From an uncultured Candidatus Saccharibacteria bacterium (lineage in GTDB: Bacteria; Patescibacteriota; Minisyncoccia; Phycocordibacterales; JACOZG01): 64,000 nucleotides of DNA. Below the pieces are notes generated by a model. That model saw nothing but the letters and a program-made list of their open reading frames with translations. It did no database searches and was not told the origin of the DNA. The position numbers and the translations under genes are program-made. The stretch covers positions 112,565 to 176,564 of the forward strand of contig CAYWPU010000001.1 of the NCBI GenBank assembly GCA_964460805.1, in the 5' to 3' direction. Within the stretch, counting starts at the first letter, position 1. Each line of letters starts with the position of its first letter. This document shows positions 842 through 62,917 of the stretch, one piece after another.

Positions 842-865
842 CTTAGCTTAAGTTTTATCCTCTAC

Positions 866-905
866 AAAAAACTCTGTGAGTAAAACACAGAGTTTTTTGT
901 TTTTG
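866..905 (+). terminator. Rho-independent terminator: hairpin ACTCTGTG-agtaaaa-CACAGAGT followed by a T-run
   Basis: Perfect 8-bp stem followed by TTTTTTGTTTTTG, directly after the stop at 841. Confidence 0.7.
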
Positions 906-913
906 TTTGCCAT

Positions 914-982
914 TCCCGTTAGAAGTTTTGCAAGTTATCTTCGCGCGTTGTGATAGACCACTTACTTCTAACGGGATATAAT
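914..982 (+). promoter_or_regulatory. pilB promoter region: 12-bp inverted repeat TCCCGTTAGAAG (914-925) / CTTCTAACGGGA (965-976), spacer 39 nt, abutting a TATAAT -10 at 977-982
   Basis: Arms are exact reverse complements. TATAAT lies 7 nt before the pilB ATG (989), implying a leaderless or near-leaderless mRNA. The same repeat recurs at 52368-52398. Confidence 0.5.
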
Positions 983-988
983 TCAATT

Positions 989-2743
989 ATGTGGATTGAT
1001 CCGGAACAATTACAGAATTTTCTCGTTGATGCTGGTTTGCTCAGCAAGCAGGATCTGCCAGCACTCACCGAGCAGGTCACAGCAAGCGGTAAGAGCTTTG
1101 AGGAAGTAGTGCTCGCTGGCGGCAAGATTAGTGAGGATGATCTCCGCCGTGCCAAAGCTTATATTCTCGGCGTGCCGTTTGTAGACCTCAAGAAAGATAA
1201 GATAGACAGGGAAGTGCTGGGACTAATTCCGGAACCAATCGCGCGCAAGCACAATATTGTGGCCATCAAGCGTCATGGTGATGAGGCGCTGGAGGTGGCG
1301 ATGCTTGATCCGGATGATCTGGAAGCAATTGGTTTTATTAAGAAAGGCTCTGGTCTCAAGATCTGGCCGCGGCTCACCGATGCCGCTTCTATCAAGTCGG
1401 CTCTACTCCAGTATCAGAAGAGTTTAAAAGCGGAATTTGGCGACTTGATTGGCAGTGAGGCGACTAAATTGAAGACGCTGAGCGATGAGGAAGCGGCTGA
1501 GATTGGCGAAGGTGAGCTCAAGAAGATGGCCGAAGACTTGCCGGTGATCCGGATTGTGGACGCGCTTTTGTCTCACGCGGTCACTCAGCAAGCCTCGGAT
1601 ATTCACATTGAGAATTTTGAGAAAGAGGTGATCGTGCGCTATCGGATAGACGGCCTGCTCCACGATGCAATGGTCTTGCCCAAGAACGCGGGCCCGGGCA
1701 TTGTGGCGAGGATCAAAGTGCTCGCTAACTTGAGGCTGGATGAGAAGCGCTTGCCGCAAGATGGCAGATTTAAGATTGAACTGAGCGGCATGGGCATCTC
1801 GTTCCGTGTCTCTATCTTGCCTACTTATTTTGGCGAGAAGATTGTGATGCGCTTGTTGCCAGATACTAGCCGCGGGCTGACGCTAGAGCAAGGCGGCTTC
1901 CATGGCCAAGCTCTGGAGAGGATACAAGAGGCGACTAATCAGACGACTGGCATGATCTTGGTTACCGGTCCCACTGGCTCGGGCAAGAGCACGACGCTCT
2001 ATACGGTGTTAGAAATCTTGAACAAGCCGGACGTGAATATCTCTACTATAGAAGATCCAATTGAGTACCAGATGCCGCGGGTCAACCAGACGCAGGTCAA
2101 GCCGGAGATCGGTCTCACTTTTGGCTCTGGTCTCCGGGCTCTGGTCCGCCAAGATCCGGATATTATCATGGTGGGTGAGATCAGAGATAAGGAGACAGCC
2201 GGCTTGGCAATCAATGCCGCGCTCACTGGTCATCTCGTCTTATCCACCCTCCACACTAATAGTGCCGCTGGCGCGATCCCCAGATTGCTAGACATGGGCG
2301 CAGAGCCGTTCTTGCTTGTTTCTACTATCAATATTATTGTGGCGCAGAGACTGGTGCGGCGACTGGAGACAGGAAAAGAGAAGTATTTGCTCAGCGCGGC
2401 GGAACTCAAGAAGTTGGGTCAGCATGTTGACCTAGACCGCATTCTCAAATTATTGAAAGAGGAAAAGATTGTGGCGCCAGGTGCGGATTGGAAAAATATC
2501 TCGTTCTACAAGCCCAAGCCCAGTGCCGAGAGCGCGGACGGCTACAAGGGCCGCATTGGCATCCACGAGGTGCTCAAGATGAGTCCGGCGATTAAAGAAC
2601 TGGTGATGAAGGGCGCGACAACAGCGCAGATTGAGGAGCAGGCCAAGCAGGAGGGGATGGCCACCATGCTGGAGGACGGCATCTTCCAGGCCGTGCAGGG
2701 GACGACGACGATTGAGGAGGTACTGAGAGTGGTGAGCGAATAG
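989..2743 (+). CDS. pilB: Type IV pilus assembly ATPase PilB (GspE/PulE family). The track ORF starts at a GTG at 950; ATG 989 is preferred because of the -10 box at 977-982.
   Basis: Walker A GPTGSGKST. GspE N-terminal domain and family-typical RIDGLL and RLPQDGRF motifs. Confidence 0.85.
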   Translation: MWIDPEQLQNFLVDAGLLSKQDLPALTEQVTASGKSFEEVVLAGGKISEDDLRRAKAYILGVPFVDLKKDKIDREVLGLIPEPIARKHNIVAIKRHGDEALEVAMLDPDDLEAIGFIKKGSGLKIWPRLTDAASIKSALLQYQKSLKAEFGDLIGSEATKLKTLSDEEAAEIGEGELKKMAEDLPVIRIVDALLSHAVTQQASDIHIENFEKEVIVRYRIDGLLHDAMVLPKNAGPGIVARIKVLANLRLDEKRLPQDGRFKIELSGMGISFRVSILPTYFGEKIVMRLLPDTSRGLTLEQGGFHGQALERIQEATNQTTGMILVTGPTGSGKSTTLYTVLEILNKPDVNISTIEDPIEYQMPRVNQTQVKPEIGLTFGSGLRALVRQDPDIIMVGEIRDKETAGLAINAALTGHLVLSTLHTNSAAGAIPRLLDMGAEPFLLVSTINIIVAQRLVRRLETGKEKYLLSAAELKKLGQHVDLDRILKLLKEEKIVAPGADWKNISFYKPKPSAESADGYKGRIGIHEVLKMSPAIKELVMKGATTAQIEEQAKQEGMATMLEDGIFQAVQGTTTIEEVLRVVSE

Positions 2744-10265: not shown

Positions 10266-11957
10266 ATGTCGGAAGATTTGTTAAATCAGCTCTTGCTGGC
10301 GCGCGGACTGGAGACGCCGGAACAGCGCGAGCAATTCCTCCAGCCTAGCTACGCCCGCGATATTGCCGATCCGTTTTTATTATCCGGCATGGAGCAAGCG
10401 GTGGCGAGAGTTCTGCAGGCAATTAAAAATACAGAGAAGATAATAATTTTTGCGGATTATGACGCTGACGGCGTGCCAGGCGCGGCTGTGCTCGCTGAAT
10501 TTTTTAGGAAAATAAAATTTAGTAATTTTGAAGTTTATATTCCCAATAGACACACGGAAGATTACGGCCTGATGGAGAAGAGTGTGCGGGAATTTGCGGC
10601 TAATCAGGCTAAGCTGATCATTACTATAGATTGCGGGATTAGTAATTTTGCAGAAGTAAAATTAGCGAATGAGCTTGGTCTAGACGTGATTATCACTGAC
10701 CACCATCTTCCACCACCGGTTTTGCCAGGGGCTCTTGCGATTGTGAATCCTAAAGTGGGGAGTGAGAATTATCCCGACAAGATGCTCTGTGGCGCGGGAG
10801 TGATTTTTAAGCTAGTCCAGGCGCTAATCGCGCGTGGCGATTTTAATTTAGATAAAAATTGGGAGAAAACACTATTAGATCTAGTAGCTATTGCAACTAT
10901 CTCTGATCGTGTGCCACTGCTGGCCGAGAACCGCGCACTGGCTAAATTTGGCTTGCTGATCCTCCAGCGCACGCCGCGGCCCGGTTTGCTCGCGCTCTTG
11001 CAGGCTGGCAAGATCAAGCAGAAGTACATTACAGAAGATGATATCGGCTATATGCTGGCGCCAAGATTGAATGCGGCAAGCAGGATGAGTCACGCTTCAG
11101 AAGCTTATTTTCTCTTAACGACCAAGAATCCGGCCGAGGCGCAAGCAATGGCGGCGCATCTGGAAAATAAAAATAGCGAACGGAAAAAATTAGTGGAGGG
11201 TATTATGCAAACAGCAGAGTCTAAAATACCTGCAGATGATCTACCAGAGCTGATTGTGTTGGGAGATAAAACTTGGTCGCCGGGTGTGCTGGGCTTGGCG
11301 GCAAGTAAATTGGTAGAAAAATTCTCGCGCCCTGTTTTCCTCTGGGGTGGCAATAATGGCGAAGTAAAAGGCTCCTGCCGCTCAGACGGCACTATCAATC
11401 TTGTGGAACTAATGCGCGCGGTGAACAGAGATGATCCGCCAGCTGGCGGATTCTTCAGTAACCTGGGCGGCCATGCCATGGCTGGCGGCTTCTCGCTCGC
11501 GGCGGCAAAAGTGGCAGAATTAGAGCAGAAGTTGCTGGAGGCTCACGCGCAGGCAGAGAAATTGGAACCGGAAGCAGAAAATAAGTTTGACGCGGCTATC
11601 TCTATTGATGAAGTAGACGAGCGCGCCTGGCGGCTGCTAGAGCAACTCGCGCCATTTGGCCCCGGCAATCCCAAACCAATTTTCTATCTGCCGAATATAG
11701 AAATTGCTCAGGCCAGGACCTTTGGCAACGGCGGCATCCACCTGGAGTTGAGCTTTAAGAAAAGCAATCCGCCATCCGCCGGCTGGCGGAGCGGAGAAAA
11801 AGTCTGCGCCGTAGGCTTCTTCACCAGTTCTAGCAAGTTTAAAGATGTGAAGTTAACAGCGGGGAGCAAGATCAATCTCTATGCCACGCTGGAGAAGTCG
11901 TTCTTTAAAGCTAATCCGGAAATCAGGTTGCGGATAGTGGATATTGTGGCTCAGTAG
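10266..11957 (+). CDS. recJ: Single-stranded-DNA-specific exonuclease RecJ
   Basis: DHH family motifs (ADYDADGV, ITDHH), DHHA1 region and C-terminal OB-like domain. Confidence 0.8.
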   Translation: MSEDLLNQLLLARGLETPEQREQFLQPSYARDIADPFLLSGMEQAVARVLQAIKNTEKIIIFADYDADGVPGAAVLAEFFRKIKFSNFEVYIPNRHTEDYGLMEKSVREFAANQAKLIITIDCGISNFAEVKLANELGLDVIITDHHLPPPVLPGALAIVNPKVGSENYPDKMLCGAGVIFKLVQALIARGDFNLDKNWEKTLLDLVAIATISDRVPLLAENRALAKFGLLILQRTPRPGLLALLQAGKIKQKYITEDDIGYMLAPRLNAASRMSHASEAYFLLTTKNPAEAQAMAAHLENKNSERKKLVEGIMQTAESKIPADDLPELIVLGDKTWSPGVLGLAASKLVEKFSRPVFLWGGNNGEVKGSCRSDGTINLVELMRAVNRDDPPAGGFFSNLGGHAMAGGFSLAAAKVAELEQKLLEAHAQAEKLEPEAENKFDAAISIDEVDERAWRLLEQLAPFGPGNPKPIFYLPNIEIAQARTFGNGGIHLELSFKKSNPPSAGWRSGEKVCAVGFFTSSSKFKDVKLTAGSKINLYATLEKSFFKANPEIRLRIVDIVAQ

Positions 11958-11988: not shown

Positions 11989-12017
11989 TTGACTTTTAAA
12001 CTCGTTTGGTATATAAT
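11989..12017 (+). promoter_or_regulatory. Sigma70-type promoter: TTGACT (11989-11994), 17-nt spacer, TATAAT (12012-12017)
   Basis: Near-consensus hexamers. Sits upstream of the conserved leader (12018-12092) and the gene at 12093. Confidence 0.6.
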
Positions 12018-12092
12018 AGGGGCTGCTAGAGCGTTTCTAGCTCTTTGAGAACGAGAACCCGTTTTTTGGCTAAACTGCCAAGAGGTGCAGAA
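12018..12092 (+). promoter_or_regulatory. Conserved structured 5' leader element (copy 1): GGGGCUGCUAGAGCGUUUCUAGCUCUUUGAGAACGAGAACCCGUUUUUUGGCUAAA. Possible attenuator or small RNA.
   Basis: Roughly 90% identical to 16216-16273. Contains the hairpin AGAGC-guuucua-GCUCU, and an outer GGG...CCC pairing followed by a U6 run. Confidence 0.45.
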
Positions 12093-16183: not shown

Positions 16184-16187
16184 CCCC

Positions 16188-16215
16188 TTGACAAGTTCTA
16201 CCCATTTGCTATAAT
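16188..16215 (+). promoter_or_regulatory. Sigma70-type promoter (family copy): TTGACA (16188-16193), 16-nt spacer AGTTCTACCCATTTGC, extended TGcTATAAT (16210-16215)
   Basis: Identical or near-identical to the promoters at 62328-62355 and 62881-62909. Confidence 0.65.
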
Positions 16216-16299
16216 AGGGGTTGCTAGAGTGTTTCTAGCTCTTTGAGAACAAGAACCCGTTTTTTTTGGCTAAAAATATAGCCAGAAGGAGAAGAGGAA
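16216..16299 (+). promoter_or_regulatory. Conserved structured 5' leader element (copy 2)
   Basis: AGGGGTTGCTAGAGTGTTTCTAGCTCTTTGAGAACAAGAACCCGTTTTTTTTGGCTAAAAA, roughly 90% identical to 12018-12075. Followed by RBS GGAGAAGAGG and ATG 16300. Confidence 0.45.
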
Positions 16300-52181: not shown

Positions 52182-52340
52182 ACCGCCAGAATCTGGCTTA
52201 AATTAGACCCAGCTTTTTTCTTTTTCCAAATTTCTCAAATAGACTTGCTTTATTTTTTTATTTCTGCTAGACTAGTCCCCGTGGGTGCGGTTGCTGGCGC
52301 AAGCTGGCACTGCTCCGCTAAATGTAAATGTCTTGCGTAA

Positions 52341-52364
52341 GGCCCCCTCTCGTAGGGGGTTTTG
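52341..52364 (+). terminator. Hairpin CCCCCT-ctcgt-AGGGGG followed by TTTT
   Basis: 6-bp GC stem plus T-run, 160 nt downstream of the Wzy_C gene and inside the structured intergenic element. Confidence 0.45.
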
Positions 52365-52367
52365 CGT

Positions 52368-52398
52368 GTCCCGTTAGAAGCCTTGCTTCTAACGGGAC
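52368..52398. repeat. Perfect 13-bp inverted repeat GTCCCGTTAGAAG-ccttg-CTTCTAACGGGAC
   Basis: Same arms as 914-925 and 965-976 upstream of pilB. Confidence 0.6.
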
Positions 52399-52695
52399 GT
52401 GCCTGTTAAACTGCTGATAGTTTCTGCCCAGCCGTGGCTGGCGGTCGCACTCACGTAAAGACATTTAGTTTTTGGAGACAGCACCCGCTGGCCACGATTG
52501 CGCAGAAAACTTTTTAGAAAAATAAAAATTGCAGGAAATAAATTTTTACAAAATTTATTTCAAAAAAGTTATCCACATAATTAGTGAAAAATAATTGTTT
52601 CTGTTTTTGTTTTGACGGATAATTAATGCAAGAGCAACGATCACTAGTCGAGATTGTTGCGGAGGACTTTAAAAAATTTTCACGCAAAAAAACAA

Positions 52696-52785
52696 ATGAA
52701 GAAAAAGAAGAAAGCAACCAAGAAGAAGGTTGCAAAGAGAAAGACCACCAAGAAGAAGGCGACCAAGCGCAAGTCTCGCCGATAG
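52696..52785 (+). CDS. Possible 29-aa lysine-rich peptide MKKKKKATKKKVAKRKTTKKKATKRKSRR
   Basis: ATG ... TAG in frame, directly followed by the strong terminator at 52817-52858. Any RBS is weak or distant. The region also supports a 61-aa acidic ORF in another frame. Confidence 0.2.
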   Translation: MKKKKKATKKKVAKRKTTKKKATKRKSRR

Positions 52786-62327: not shown

Positions 62328-62355
62328 TGCCAACGACTTGACAATTTCTGCCCAT
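62328..62355 (+). promoter_or_regulatory. Sigma70-type promoter (family copy): TTGACA, spacer ATTTCTGCCCATTTGC, TATACT
   Basis: Shares a 26/28-nt core with the promoters at 16188 and 62881. Sits upstream of the RRM-protein gene with a roughly 130-nt leader. Confidence 0.55.
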
Positions 62356-62485
62356 TTGCTATACTTGACCTTGTAAGTGTTTTCTCGCGATGTATTCTTA
62401 CGCTTTGGCGCTAAGGAGGACCAGGAGAAAAAGCTGGCAATAAGCTGGCAAAGTCGCCTTACACCATTGTTAAACAACTCAATAA

Positions 62486-62788: not shown

Positions 62789-62880
62789 TTCACCAGTCCT
62801 GTGCACAAGAAAAACTCTCCCAGTAAAACGGGGGAGTTTTTCTTTTAGTTCTTGTTGTTTGTCTCAAGTCTTGACAATTT

Positions 62881-62909
62881 CTACCCATTTGCTATAATTG
62901 AGGCAGGAG
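62881..62909 (+). promoter_or_regulatory. Sigma70-type promoter (family copy): TTGACA, spacer ATTTCTACCCATTTGC, TATAAT
   Basis: Matches 16188-16215 except for one spacer base. ATG at 62918. Confidence 0.65.
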
Positions 62910-62917
62910 GTTTTGTT

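Follow-up and report, generated by a model that had tools for sequence, protein, structure and literature searches.

The DNA analyzed here is a 64-kb stretch (the window) of contig CAYWPU010000001.1 from an uncultured Candidatus Saccharibacteria bacterium, in which one pair of 12-bp inverted repeats occurs at two loci, in the promoter of pilB, a gene for a T2SSE/MshEN ATPase, and within a structured non-coding RNA encoded upstream of secA. The SecA and PilB sequences place the window in Patescibacteria, near Paceibacteria and Nomurabacteria, with the nearest SecA relatives being 74-76% identical and the nearest PilB relative 94% identical. At both loci, the repeats and the DNA between them are an insertion relative to orthologous sites, and the two insertions are probably copies of one family of very small transposons that resemble MITEs, or miniature inverted-repeat transposable elements. 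The first locus comprises the following features:

864-900, plus strand: intrinsic terminator of the upstream gene, called by a terminator scan, which is the left limit of the pilB promoter region
914-976, no strand: copy 1, 63 bp, in the pilB promoter, with exact arms; the block is absent from orthologous upstream regions
914-925, plus strand: left terminal inverted repeat of copy 1, TCCCGTTAGAAG, matching the family consensus YCCCGTTAGAAG
926-964, between the arms: interior of copy 1, 39 nt
954-959, plus strand: putative -35-like hexamer TAGACC inside copy 1, 17 nt upstream of TATAAT
965-976, minus strand: right terminal inverted repeat of copy 1, CTTCTAACGGGA on the plus strand, an exact 12-mer
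977-982, plus strand: TATAAT, the -10 box of pilB, part of the host sequence and separated by 6 nt from the ATG at 989
989-2743, plus strand: pilB, downstream of copy 1 (Pfam T2SSE, 1.2e-122)

The second locus, upstream of secA, comprises:

52280-52515, plus strand, approximate ends: conserved structured non-coding RNA, the host of copy 2, in the region from the Wzy_C/TPR gene to secA
52365-52368, plus strand: left copy of the target-site duplication, CGTG, read from the sequence
52369-52397, no strand: copy 2, 29 bp, two 12-bp terminal inverted repeats with exact arms around CCTTG
52398-52401, plus strand: right copy of the target-site duplication, CGTG, which fits the 4-bp YNNR duplication of the family

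The window contains exactly four occurrences of the 12-mer TCCCGTTAGAAG, at 914-925 (plus strand), 965-976 (minus strand), 52369-52380 (plus strand) and 52386-52397 (minus strand), and these four occurrences form two inverted pairs, 914-976 and 52369-52397, neither of which lies inside an open reading frame (ORF). Near-matches with two mismatches are at the chance level in the window (8 matches in all versus 3.9 expected). The search for inverted pairs with gaps of 1-61 nt matched only these two loci, compared to 0.00 matches in 100 dinucleotide-preserving shuffles of the window. The repeat pair is not a product of chance. A preliminary description of this DNA, made from the letters alone, had noted the same inverted arms at two loci and considered the exact reuse of a 12-mer improbable; both points hold, as does its placement of the first pair, with a 39-nt spacer, immediately next to the -10 box of pilB.

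Translated from the ATG at 989, PilB is a protein of 584 aa that is 100% identical to the database cluster P0121 (584 aa). We compared the region upstream of pilB with those of three relatives that encode PilB proteins with 94% (L128), 85% (L129) and 83% (L131) identity (L numbers denote sequences used for comparison). In these relatives, the order is a terminator hairpin, a T-run, 10-17 nt ending in TGn, TATAAT, 6-8 nt and ATG, and the repeat was not found in any of the three upstream regions. The promoter in the window has the same layout with 63 extra bp directly before TATAAT; because all three orthologous promoters lack this block, site 1 is an insertion relative to them. Copy 1 parts the TGn extended -10 motif from TATAAT and brings TAGACC to a 17-bp spacing, with the right repeat taking up the larger part of the spacer that separates this hexamer from the -10 box, and TAGACC/TATAAT is the sole promoter-like site that a promoter scan calls in the segment 700-1100 (10 of 12 matches). 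Under the scenario suggested by this comparison, the element would have entered between TGn and TATAAT of a leaderless pilB promoter, with the loss of TGn and the gain of an element-borne -35-like hexamer, and it probably changed pilB transcription. Nothing points to a regulator bound at the right repeat. The pairing of the arms reaches one base further inward (T926/A964), to 13 bp, so that copy 1 folds into a 13-bp closing stem with a weakly structured interior (-15.9 kcal/mol as DNA, z score -6.1); the interior belongs to the unstructured class described below (z = -0.7).

The notion of a leaderless promoter comes from the gene starts of the window. A Shine-Dalgarno sequence is absent before all 38 gene starts inspected, and in several first genes, namely pilB (989), those at 10266, 14482 and 26866, and secA (52885), the ATG follows a TATAAT or CATAAT box at a distance of 6-9 nt, a pattern suggestive of widespread leaderless mRNAs in the window; for these first genes, they are probable. 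The pilB genes of the relatives likewise have this layout and no Shine-Dalgarno sequence. The distance of only 6 nt between the -10 box and the ATG of pilB implies a leaderless mRNA and, the pilB mRNA being probably leaderless, the repeat at site 1 would therefore belong to promoter DNA, outside the pilB transcript.

The host of copy 2 is an RNA of about 230 nt with its own promoter-like sequence, TTGCTT-17-TAGACT, on the plus strand. The intergenic region has a minimum free energy z score of -7.2, in agreement with the preliminary description, which had assigned the second pair to a structured region upstream of secA. Aligned with its homologues from L003 and L004, the host RNA has a mean column identity of 77%, and the alignment contains 6 compensatory pairs and long runs of invariant positions; further homologues are found in L132 and L133, and L002 lacks the RNA altogether. 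Rfam produced no match for the host RNA or for either copy (whole window at the gathering score; secA-upstream region at E-values up to 10), and ARAGORN detected no tRNA or tmRNA in the window.

In the host-RNA homologues L003, L004/L133 and L132, the sequence TTTGCGT(G/A)TC is uninterrupted, the empty sites in L003 and L132 reading TTTGCGTG/TC, and at the same place the window reads TTTG-CGTG-(TCCCGTTAGAAG CCTTG CTTCTAACGGGA)-CGTG-CC. The hairpin was not found in any of these four homologues (L003, L004, L132 and L133), and site 2 is a 29-bp insertion with a 4-bp duplication relative to the orthologous sites. L001, an independent Logan assembly from this organism, contains the same copy. The site had been described as a perfect 13-bp palindrome with a 5-nt loop; the arms of 12 nt and the gap of 5 nt stand, but the 13th pair (G52368/C52398) is part of the flanking CGTG direct repeats and lies outside the element. 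Together with its flanks, copy 2 folds as an 18-pair hairpin with a 3-nt loop (-17.9 kcal/mol as DNA, z score -8.9). It is located in an unpaired linker of the host RNA that varies among the homologues, where a 29-bp remnant or mini-copy would have entered with duplication of CGTG; the copy is likely tolerated, and presumably neutral, rather than functional. The earlier suggestion of an RNA hairpin module is correct insofar as the element adds a hairpin to a non-coding RNA; because the host-RNA homologues lack it, this hairpin is an insertion and not a native module. As a separate observation, the part of the interior of copy 1 that adjoins its right repeat (940-964, TTCGCGCGTTGTGATAGACCACTTA) resembles the left flank and left repeat of copy 2 (52361-52385, TTTGCGTGTCCCGTTAGAAGCCTTG), with 73% similarity over 37 nt, the shared arm counted, and may be a decayed third arm or a chance similarity.

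For a view of the family beyond the window, 185,579 species-representative genomes were scanned for CCCGTTAGAAG and CTTCTAACGGG separated by 1-61 nt. At least 120 stretches were retrieved, versus about 4 expected by chance, from at least 102 assemblies, with a maximum of at least 4 stretches per assembly; the two sites in the window accordingly are parts of a larger dispersed repeat, an outcome that the preliminary description had itself foreseen as incompatible with its proposal. The counts for the family given here and below apply to the matches listed. Because copies were collected by exact arms only, arm conservation is biased and the copy numbers are lower bounds. Patescibacteria, with many classes including Saccharibacteria, account for 52 of the 102 assemblies and Planctomycetota for 14; the rest come from Omnitrophota, Elusimicrobiota, Nitrospirota/Thermodesulfovibrionia, Nitrospinota, metagenome-assembled genomes of delta- and gammaproteobacteria, Riflebacteria, Ratteibacteria and Edwardsbacteria. 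There are two copies in the 64-kb window and, among the matches listed, 2-4 stretches each in other assemblies; JAZDMB01, DUZJ01, CAYHZG01 and JAHCSD01 are assemblies rich in copies. Carriage by phages is disfavored given that the arm pair is present in only 3 of 2.9 million viral contigs, and the interior of copy 1, searched as an exact 30-mer, had no match in metagenome contigs. In copies from Planctomycetota, a conserved CTGRGAAGC comes after the right repeat, then 7-9 nt and TTGCTACTGC (L011 1260-1303; L044 5034-5076; L072 4530-4574; L101 5043-5086; L069 61-105); this extension may represent a repeat unit of larger size or else a C-terminal tail that is conserved (…KLxKxATA*).

All-against-all clustering of the 1,783 ORFs from the 120 family loci listed gave PilB/T2SSE, BipA, MetRS and AspRS as the top clusters. 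The largest of these, PilB/T2SSE, represents 8 of the 120 loci, with T2SSF and T2SSG nearby, and other neighbors include RuvB and peptidases; no consistently adjacent protein family and no recurrent transposase were detected among these ORFs. Among arm pairs separated by up to 6 kb and examined for duplications, there were only nested or composite small elements. Searched against Rfam, 32 family loci contained only tRNAs and one cobalamin riboswitch, all away from the elements.

The boundaries of the element could be delineated from 125 listed copies with full flanks. The family repeat is 12 bp long, YCCCGTTAGAAG ... CTTCTAACGGGR: the base outside the 11-mer pairs with its partner in 116 of the 125 copies, versus 62.6 expected, as Y...R. 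The next four bases form an exact direct repeat in 73 of the 125 (mean 7.1 and maximum 15 when the partners are shuffled), and these duplicated bases follow YNNR, mostly TNNA, with weaker preferences for R and Y just outside. The alternative delineation, 11-bp repeats with a 6-bp duplication, was rejected: the arm-adjacent base pairs far more often (116 of 125) than it is directly repeated (60-65 of 125), and for this reason the 12-bp repeat with a 4-bp duplication is preferred. In the scanned range, arm gaps are 5-58 nt and the elements are 27-80 bp long. There are also subfamilies of about 90-150 bp with distinct arm tips (…AGAAA/TTTCT…, …AGAGG/CCTCT…, …AGAGA…) and variants of about 110-365 bp, which contain no ORF. 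Nested insertions are seen, for example, in L011, L059, L038/L039 and L095, and some copies have a mismatch in one arm only.

Many interiors are GC-rich and form two hairpins, U-[CC…GG]-CA-[G…C]-UUA, in which the stem sequences differ and the pairing is kept; their mean folding z score is -1.9, compared to -0.5 for the AT-rich, unstructured interiors. Another structured RNA, of about 300 nt (GAATCAATTTAGC … CCCGAAGGGAAGCTAAAAAATGGC; L006 3040-3330, L053 1140-1430 and L071 3260-3550), carries the hairpin at the same position with a CGAG duplication, and, relative to L006 and L053, L071 has its 23-nt interior as the reverse complement (17 of 23 positions). An rRNA context for these three loci was ruled out by Rfam, and ARAGORN found no tRNA or tmRNA in them.

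The arms have a single stop-free frame, CCC GTT AGA AGn … nCT TCT AAC GGG, the other two carrying TAG or TAA. The length of the element is divisible by 3 in 72 of the 125 listed copies. Twenty listed copies lie in frame within long ORFs, and all 20 are divisible by 3 and contain no stops in the host frame; these copies have a mean interior GC content of 0.62, are read as …PVRS…SNG… with duplicated codons on both sides, and occur in both orientations. The host proteins include SecA (L014), DnaE (L030) and CarB (L097), and alignment of the L014 SecA with 8 other SecA proteins reveals a clean insertion of 22 residues in a variable linker. Splicing or translational bypass need not be invoked, all 20 copies being open and divisible by 3; three further cases that are out of frame involve doubtful ORFs.

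A further 20 listed copies directly adjoin the start codon of an ORF that has 100 codons or more; offset 0 accounts for 17, and every other offset between 0 and 60 for 2 at most. They are rich in AT, with a GC content of 0.39, and for 18 of the 20 the length is no multiple of 3. Where the repeat ends in A and the duplication reads TGNN, insertion restores the start codon on the side of the gene; this geometry accounts for a part of the preference for start codons and not for its strength. Termination-reinitiation from an upstream ORF was considered as well and is not supported, given that only about 5 of the 17 ORFs run to the TAA/TGA of the arm. In one Saccharibacteria contig (L012, 3823-6486), three elements are found within 2.7 kb, each abutting a gene start codon on one or both sides.

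The terminal inverted repeats, the target duplication, the small size, the empty orthologous sites, the occurrence of two copies in the window and of 2-4 stretches in some other assemblies, and the nesting and decay of copies are the reasons why we regard both pairs in the window as probable copies of one very small, non-autonomous inverted-repeat transposon family, that is, a MITE-like palindromic element. The preliminary description had mentioned a "REP/MITE-like" element as an option; the features just named are those of a MITE, whereas the duplications and the copies inside ORFs do not fit a repetitive extragenic palindrome (REP). We infer a transposase-based mechanism in which a putative transposase acting in trans would recognize the repeats and make 4-bp staggered cuts at YNNR, mostly TNNA, the repair of which would leave the 4-bp direct duplication. 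The IS1380 family has duplications of 4-5 bp and CC ends and is a possible lead to the parent element. Copies would then persist where the harm is small, that is, between genes, beside start codons and in variable RNA loops, and, inside proteins, in the single stop-free frame of the arms, read as PVRS...SNG.

Several observations weigh against this interpretation. The target duplication is not intact at copy 1, which is flanked by CCAT (910-913) and TATA (977-980). An autonomous copy or a transposase was not found in about 0.9 Mb of family loci. Identical repeats of 11-12 bp are present in at least eight phyla, together with several unrelated classes of interiors, which is unusual for MITEs derived from insertion sequences. 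The co-varying, GC-rich interiors with two hairpins hint at a constraint at the single-strand or RNA level that plain cut-and-paste transposition does not need. The copies of 27-29 bp can hardly be synapsed as duplex DNA, and therefore would be deletion remnants or products of another route. Perfect arms were required for all copies of the family, so that arm conservation is in part an ascertainment effect, and the two copies from the source genome are those within the 64 kb examined.

Some of these difficulties would disappear if the YCCCGTTAGAAG hairpins were undescribed cross-phylum selfish elements and a putative horizontally spreading enzyme recognized the 12-bp stem as folded single-stranded DNA or RNA. 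This would explain the 29-nt copies with duplications, the arms shared across phyla, the co-varying interiors, the opposite insertions at the same site and the preference for gene starts; we consider such a scheme unlikely, if worth stating. Should it be true, the element would act generally in streamlined genomes, shaping their proteins, promoters and small RNAs.

A related explanation, which appears distinctly unlikely, is that the hairpin is a functional module, its stem, as RNA or single-stranded DNA, being recognized sequence-specifically by a conserved or horizontally spreading protein, and that it spreads as a hairpin and not by duplex transposon ends; function would then maintain the arms and leave the interiors unconstrained. 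Arms that are identical across phyla around interiors of unrelated classes are compatible with this idea, and so are the class A interiors, with their two hairpins, co-varying stems and fixed junction bases U / CA / UUA, the arm-tip variants that change on both sides together, and the 27-29-bp copies that have flanking duplications of their own in several genomes. Furthermore, two different structured RNAs carry the hairpin, with opposite 23-nt interiors at the same site in L006/L053 and L071. However, the homologous secA-upstream RNAs and pilB promoters lack the hairpin, and direct duplications of 4 bp suggest that duplex target DNA was cut in a staggered manner. The copies within ORFs occur in both orientations and obey the rule of divisibility by 3 without stops, which argues that they are translated rather than removed. 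In addition, no Rfam family corresponds to the hairpin, and the conservation of the arms is inflated by the exact-match collection.

The possibility that attracted attention to these repeats, an operator with 12-bp half-sites for a transcription factor, dimeric or tetrameric, that controls pilB and the secA-upstream RNA, now seems highly improbable. At site 1, a protein bound to the right arm, which is placed between the -35-like hexamer and the -10 box, would block RNA polymerase, the centers of the arms are 51 bp apart, or about five helical turns, and PilB/T2SSE is the largest cluster of neighbors. Nevertheless, the spacing of the half-sites is 5 versus 39 nt in the window and 5-58 nt across the family, perfect non-degenerate 12-mers are atypical of operators, the relatives with 83-94% identical PilB lack the site, and most of the listed copies are beside housekeeping genes or inside ORFs; the flanking target duplications have no place in an operator model. 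The preliminary description had envisaged a dimeric regulator of pilus or competence genes, and it is the unequal spacing, the repeat-free orthologous promoters and the occurrence of the arms in ORFs and in many phyla that led us to abandon this proposal. An intrinsic terminator is rejected as well: the terminator scan calls neither copy, and the sequence after the arms is TATAAT at site 1 and CGTGCCTG at site 2.

Least credible of all is the reading of the arms as core sites of a site-specific recombinase (dif/lox-like or of an invertible switch) that inverts or excises the segment between them: the 11-12-bp inverted arms with a 5-6-nt spacer in the minimal copies do resemble the core sites of tyrosine recombinases, the L071 interior is inverted relative to L006 at the same site, and site 1 encloses a -35-like element as invertible promoters do, but spacer length is a continuum from 5 to 58 nt, in most copies much below what synapsis and inversion of duplex DNA need, the duplication is 4 bp versus the 6-8-bp overlap of tyrosine recombinases, the arm-adjacent base pairs in 116 of the 125 listed copies and is directly repeated in only about 60-65, and no recombinase gene is linked to the family loci.

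Short palindromic repeats of several kinds are already known in bacteria, and the Correia element is noted for its promoter and terminator effects. The MITE-like family described here can be compared, first of all, with the bacterial MITEs, namely the Correia element of Neisseria, RUP of pneumococcus and ERIC (PMC10969869). Like these, the window family is short, non-coding, bounded by terminal inverted repeats and associated with a short target duplication, and it is dispersed, occupies an orthologous site in some genomes and not in others, and can reside in promoters and change them. Unlike them, it has a repeat of unrelated sequence, a 4-bp YNNR duplication rather than TA, copies down to 27-29 bp, 11-12-bp repeats that occur in many phyla rather than in one genus, and no known parent insertion sequence.

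Invasion of protein-coding genes has been described for the Rickettsia palindromic elements (RPEs), which are palindromic selfish DNA found in frame in unrelated, often essential genes and translated (Ogata et al. 2000, 2002 in PMC10969869); the RPEs are about 150 bp long, are confined to Rickettsia and encode a conserved peptide in each family (PMC10969869). The window family similarly enters protein genes in frame (SecA, DnaE, CarB), with 20 of 20 such copies divisible by 3. It differs from RPEs, judging by the descriptions of the latter, in that it is fixed only at the termini (PVRS...SNG), is 27-80 bp long and more, has clear target duplications, and resides in hosts that span Patescibacteria, Planctomycetota and others.

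The likeness to two other groups of repeats is more limited. REPs and bacterial interspersed mosaic elements (BIMEs) are extragenic, are not known to cause target duplications, usually have GTAG at the 5' end, are tied to a RAYT (TnpA-REP) gene and are lineage-specific. The window family likewise consists of short, dispersed intergenic palindromes able to form hairpins, but it has duplications and copies within ORFs and lacks GTAG and a linked gene. An origin as REP/BIME with a RAYT was rejected on the grounds of the copies inside ORFs, the presence of duplications and the failure to find a recurrent linked gene at the family loci. The attC sites of integrons have consensus boxes RYYYAAC, at the 5' side, and GTTRRRY; as in attC, the palindromes of the window family are imperfect and variable in length, conserved at the base of the stem and variable in terminal structure. 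The similarity of GTTAGAA/TTCTAAC to the GTTRRRY/RYYYAAC boxes is superficial, because the polarity is opposite, with GTTAGAA in the 5' arm of the family, and target duplications are present. Integron attC sites are likewise rejected: besides the reversed polarity, the copies are single and dispersed, and neither cassette arrays nor an integrase cluster were found at the family loci.

In the literature, the 11-mer was encountered only as chance primers in unrelated papers, and a prior description of the family was not found, which is not proof of absence; a search on MITEs and palindromic elements in Patescibacteria and related phyla turned up nothing relevant. As far as Rfam and full-text sequence search can tell, the family has not been described.

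Some additional features of the window deserve mention. Upstream of secA, a perfect DnaA-box sequence, TTATCCACA, is located at 52569-52577 in an AT-rich stretch that precedes a small basic ORF and secA, and its position is kept in L002, L003 and L004. The ORF in question, 29 codons rich in Lys and Arg (MKKKKKATKKKVAKRKTTKKKATKRKSRR; 52696-52785, plus strand), lies between the RNA and secA and is preceded by a conserved leader hairpin (GCAACGATC…GATTGTTGC); equivalent tiny basic ORFs exist in L002-L004, and the 61-aa gene that the Logan assembly has at this place is in a different frame. Elsewhere, a promoter module, CTTGACAAnTTCTnCCCATTTGCTATAAT, is present in three copies (16187-16233, 62337-62383 and 62870-62916), and a 56-nt leader that follows TATAAT (…GGGGCTGCTAGAGCGTTTCTAGCTCTTTGAGAAC…) is 95% identical at 12012-12067 and 16210-16265.

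For the window itself, these results remove the tempting notion of a pilus or competence operator and replace it with a transposon insertion that would have rebuilt the pilB promoter and another that decorated a conserved small RNA. Beyond the window, at least 102 uncultivated genomes of many phyla carry the family, in frame in essential proteins, directly at start codons and within structured RNAs. In genome annotation, such elements lead to spurious indels, erroneous start calls and motifs discovered falsely. The family may serve as a marker of horizontal transfer between bacteria of groundwater and sediment. Its presence also raises the question of how the ultra-small genomes of Patescibacteria tolerate and spread mobile DNA.

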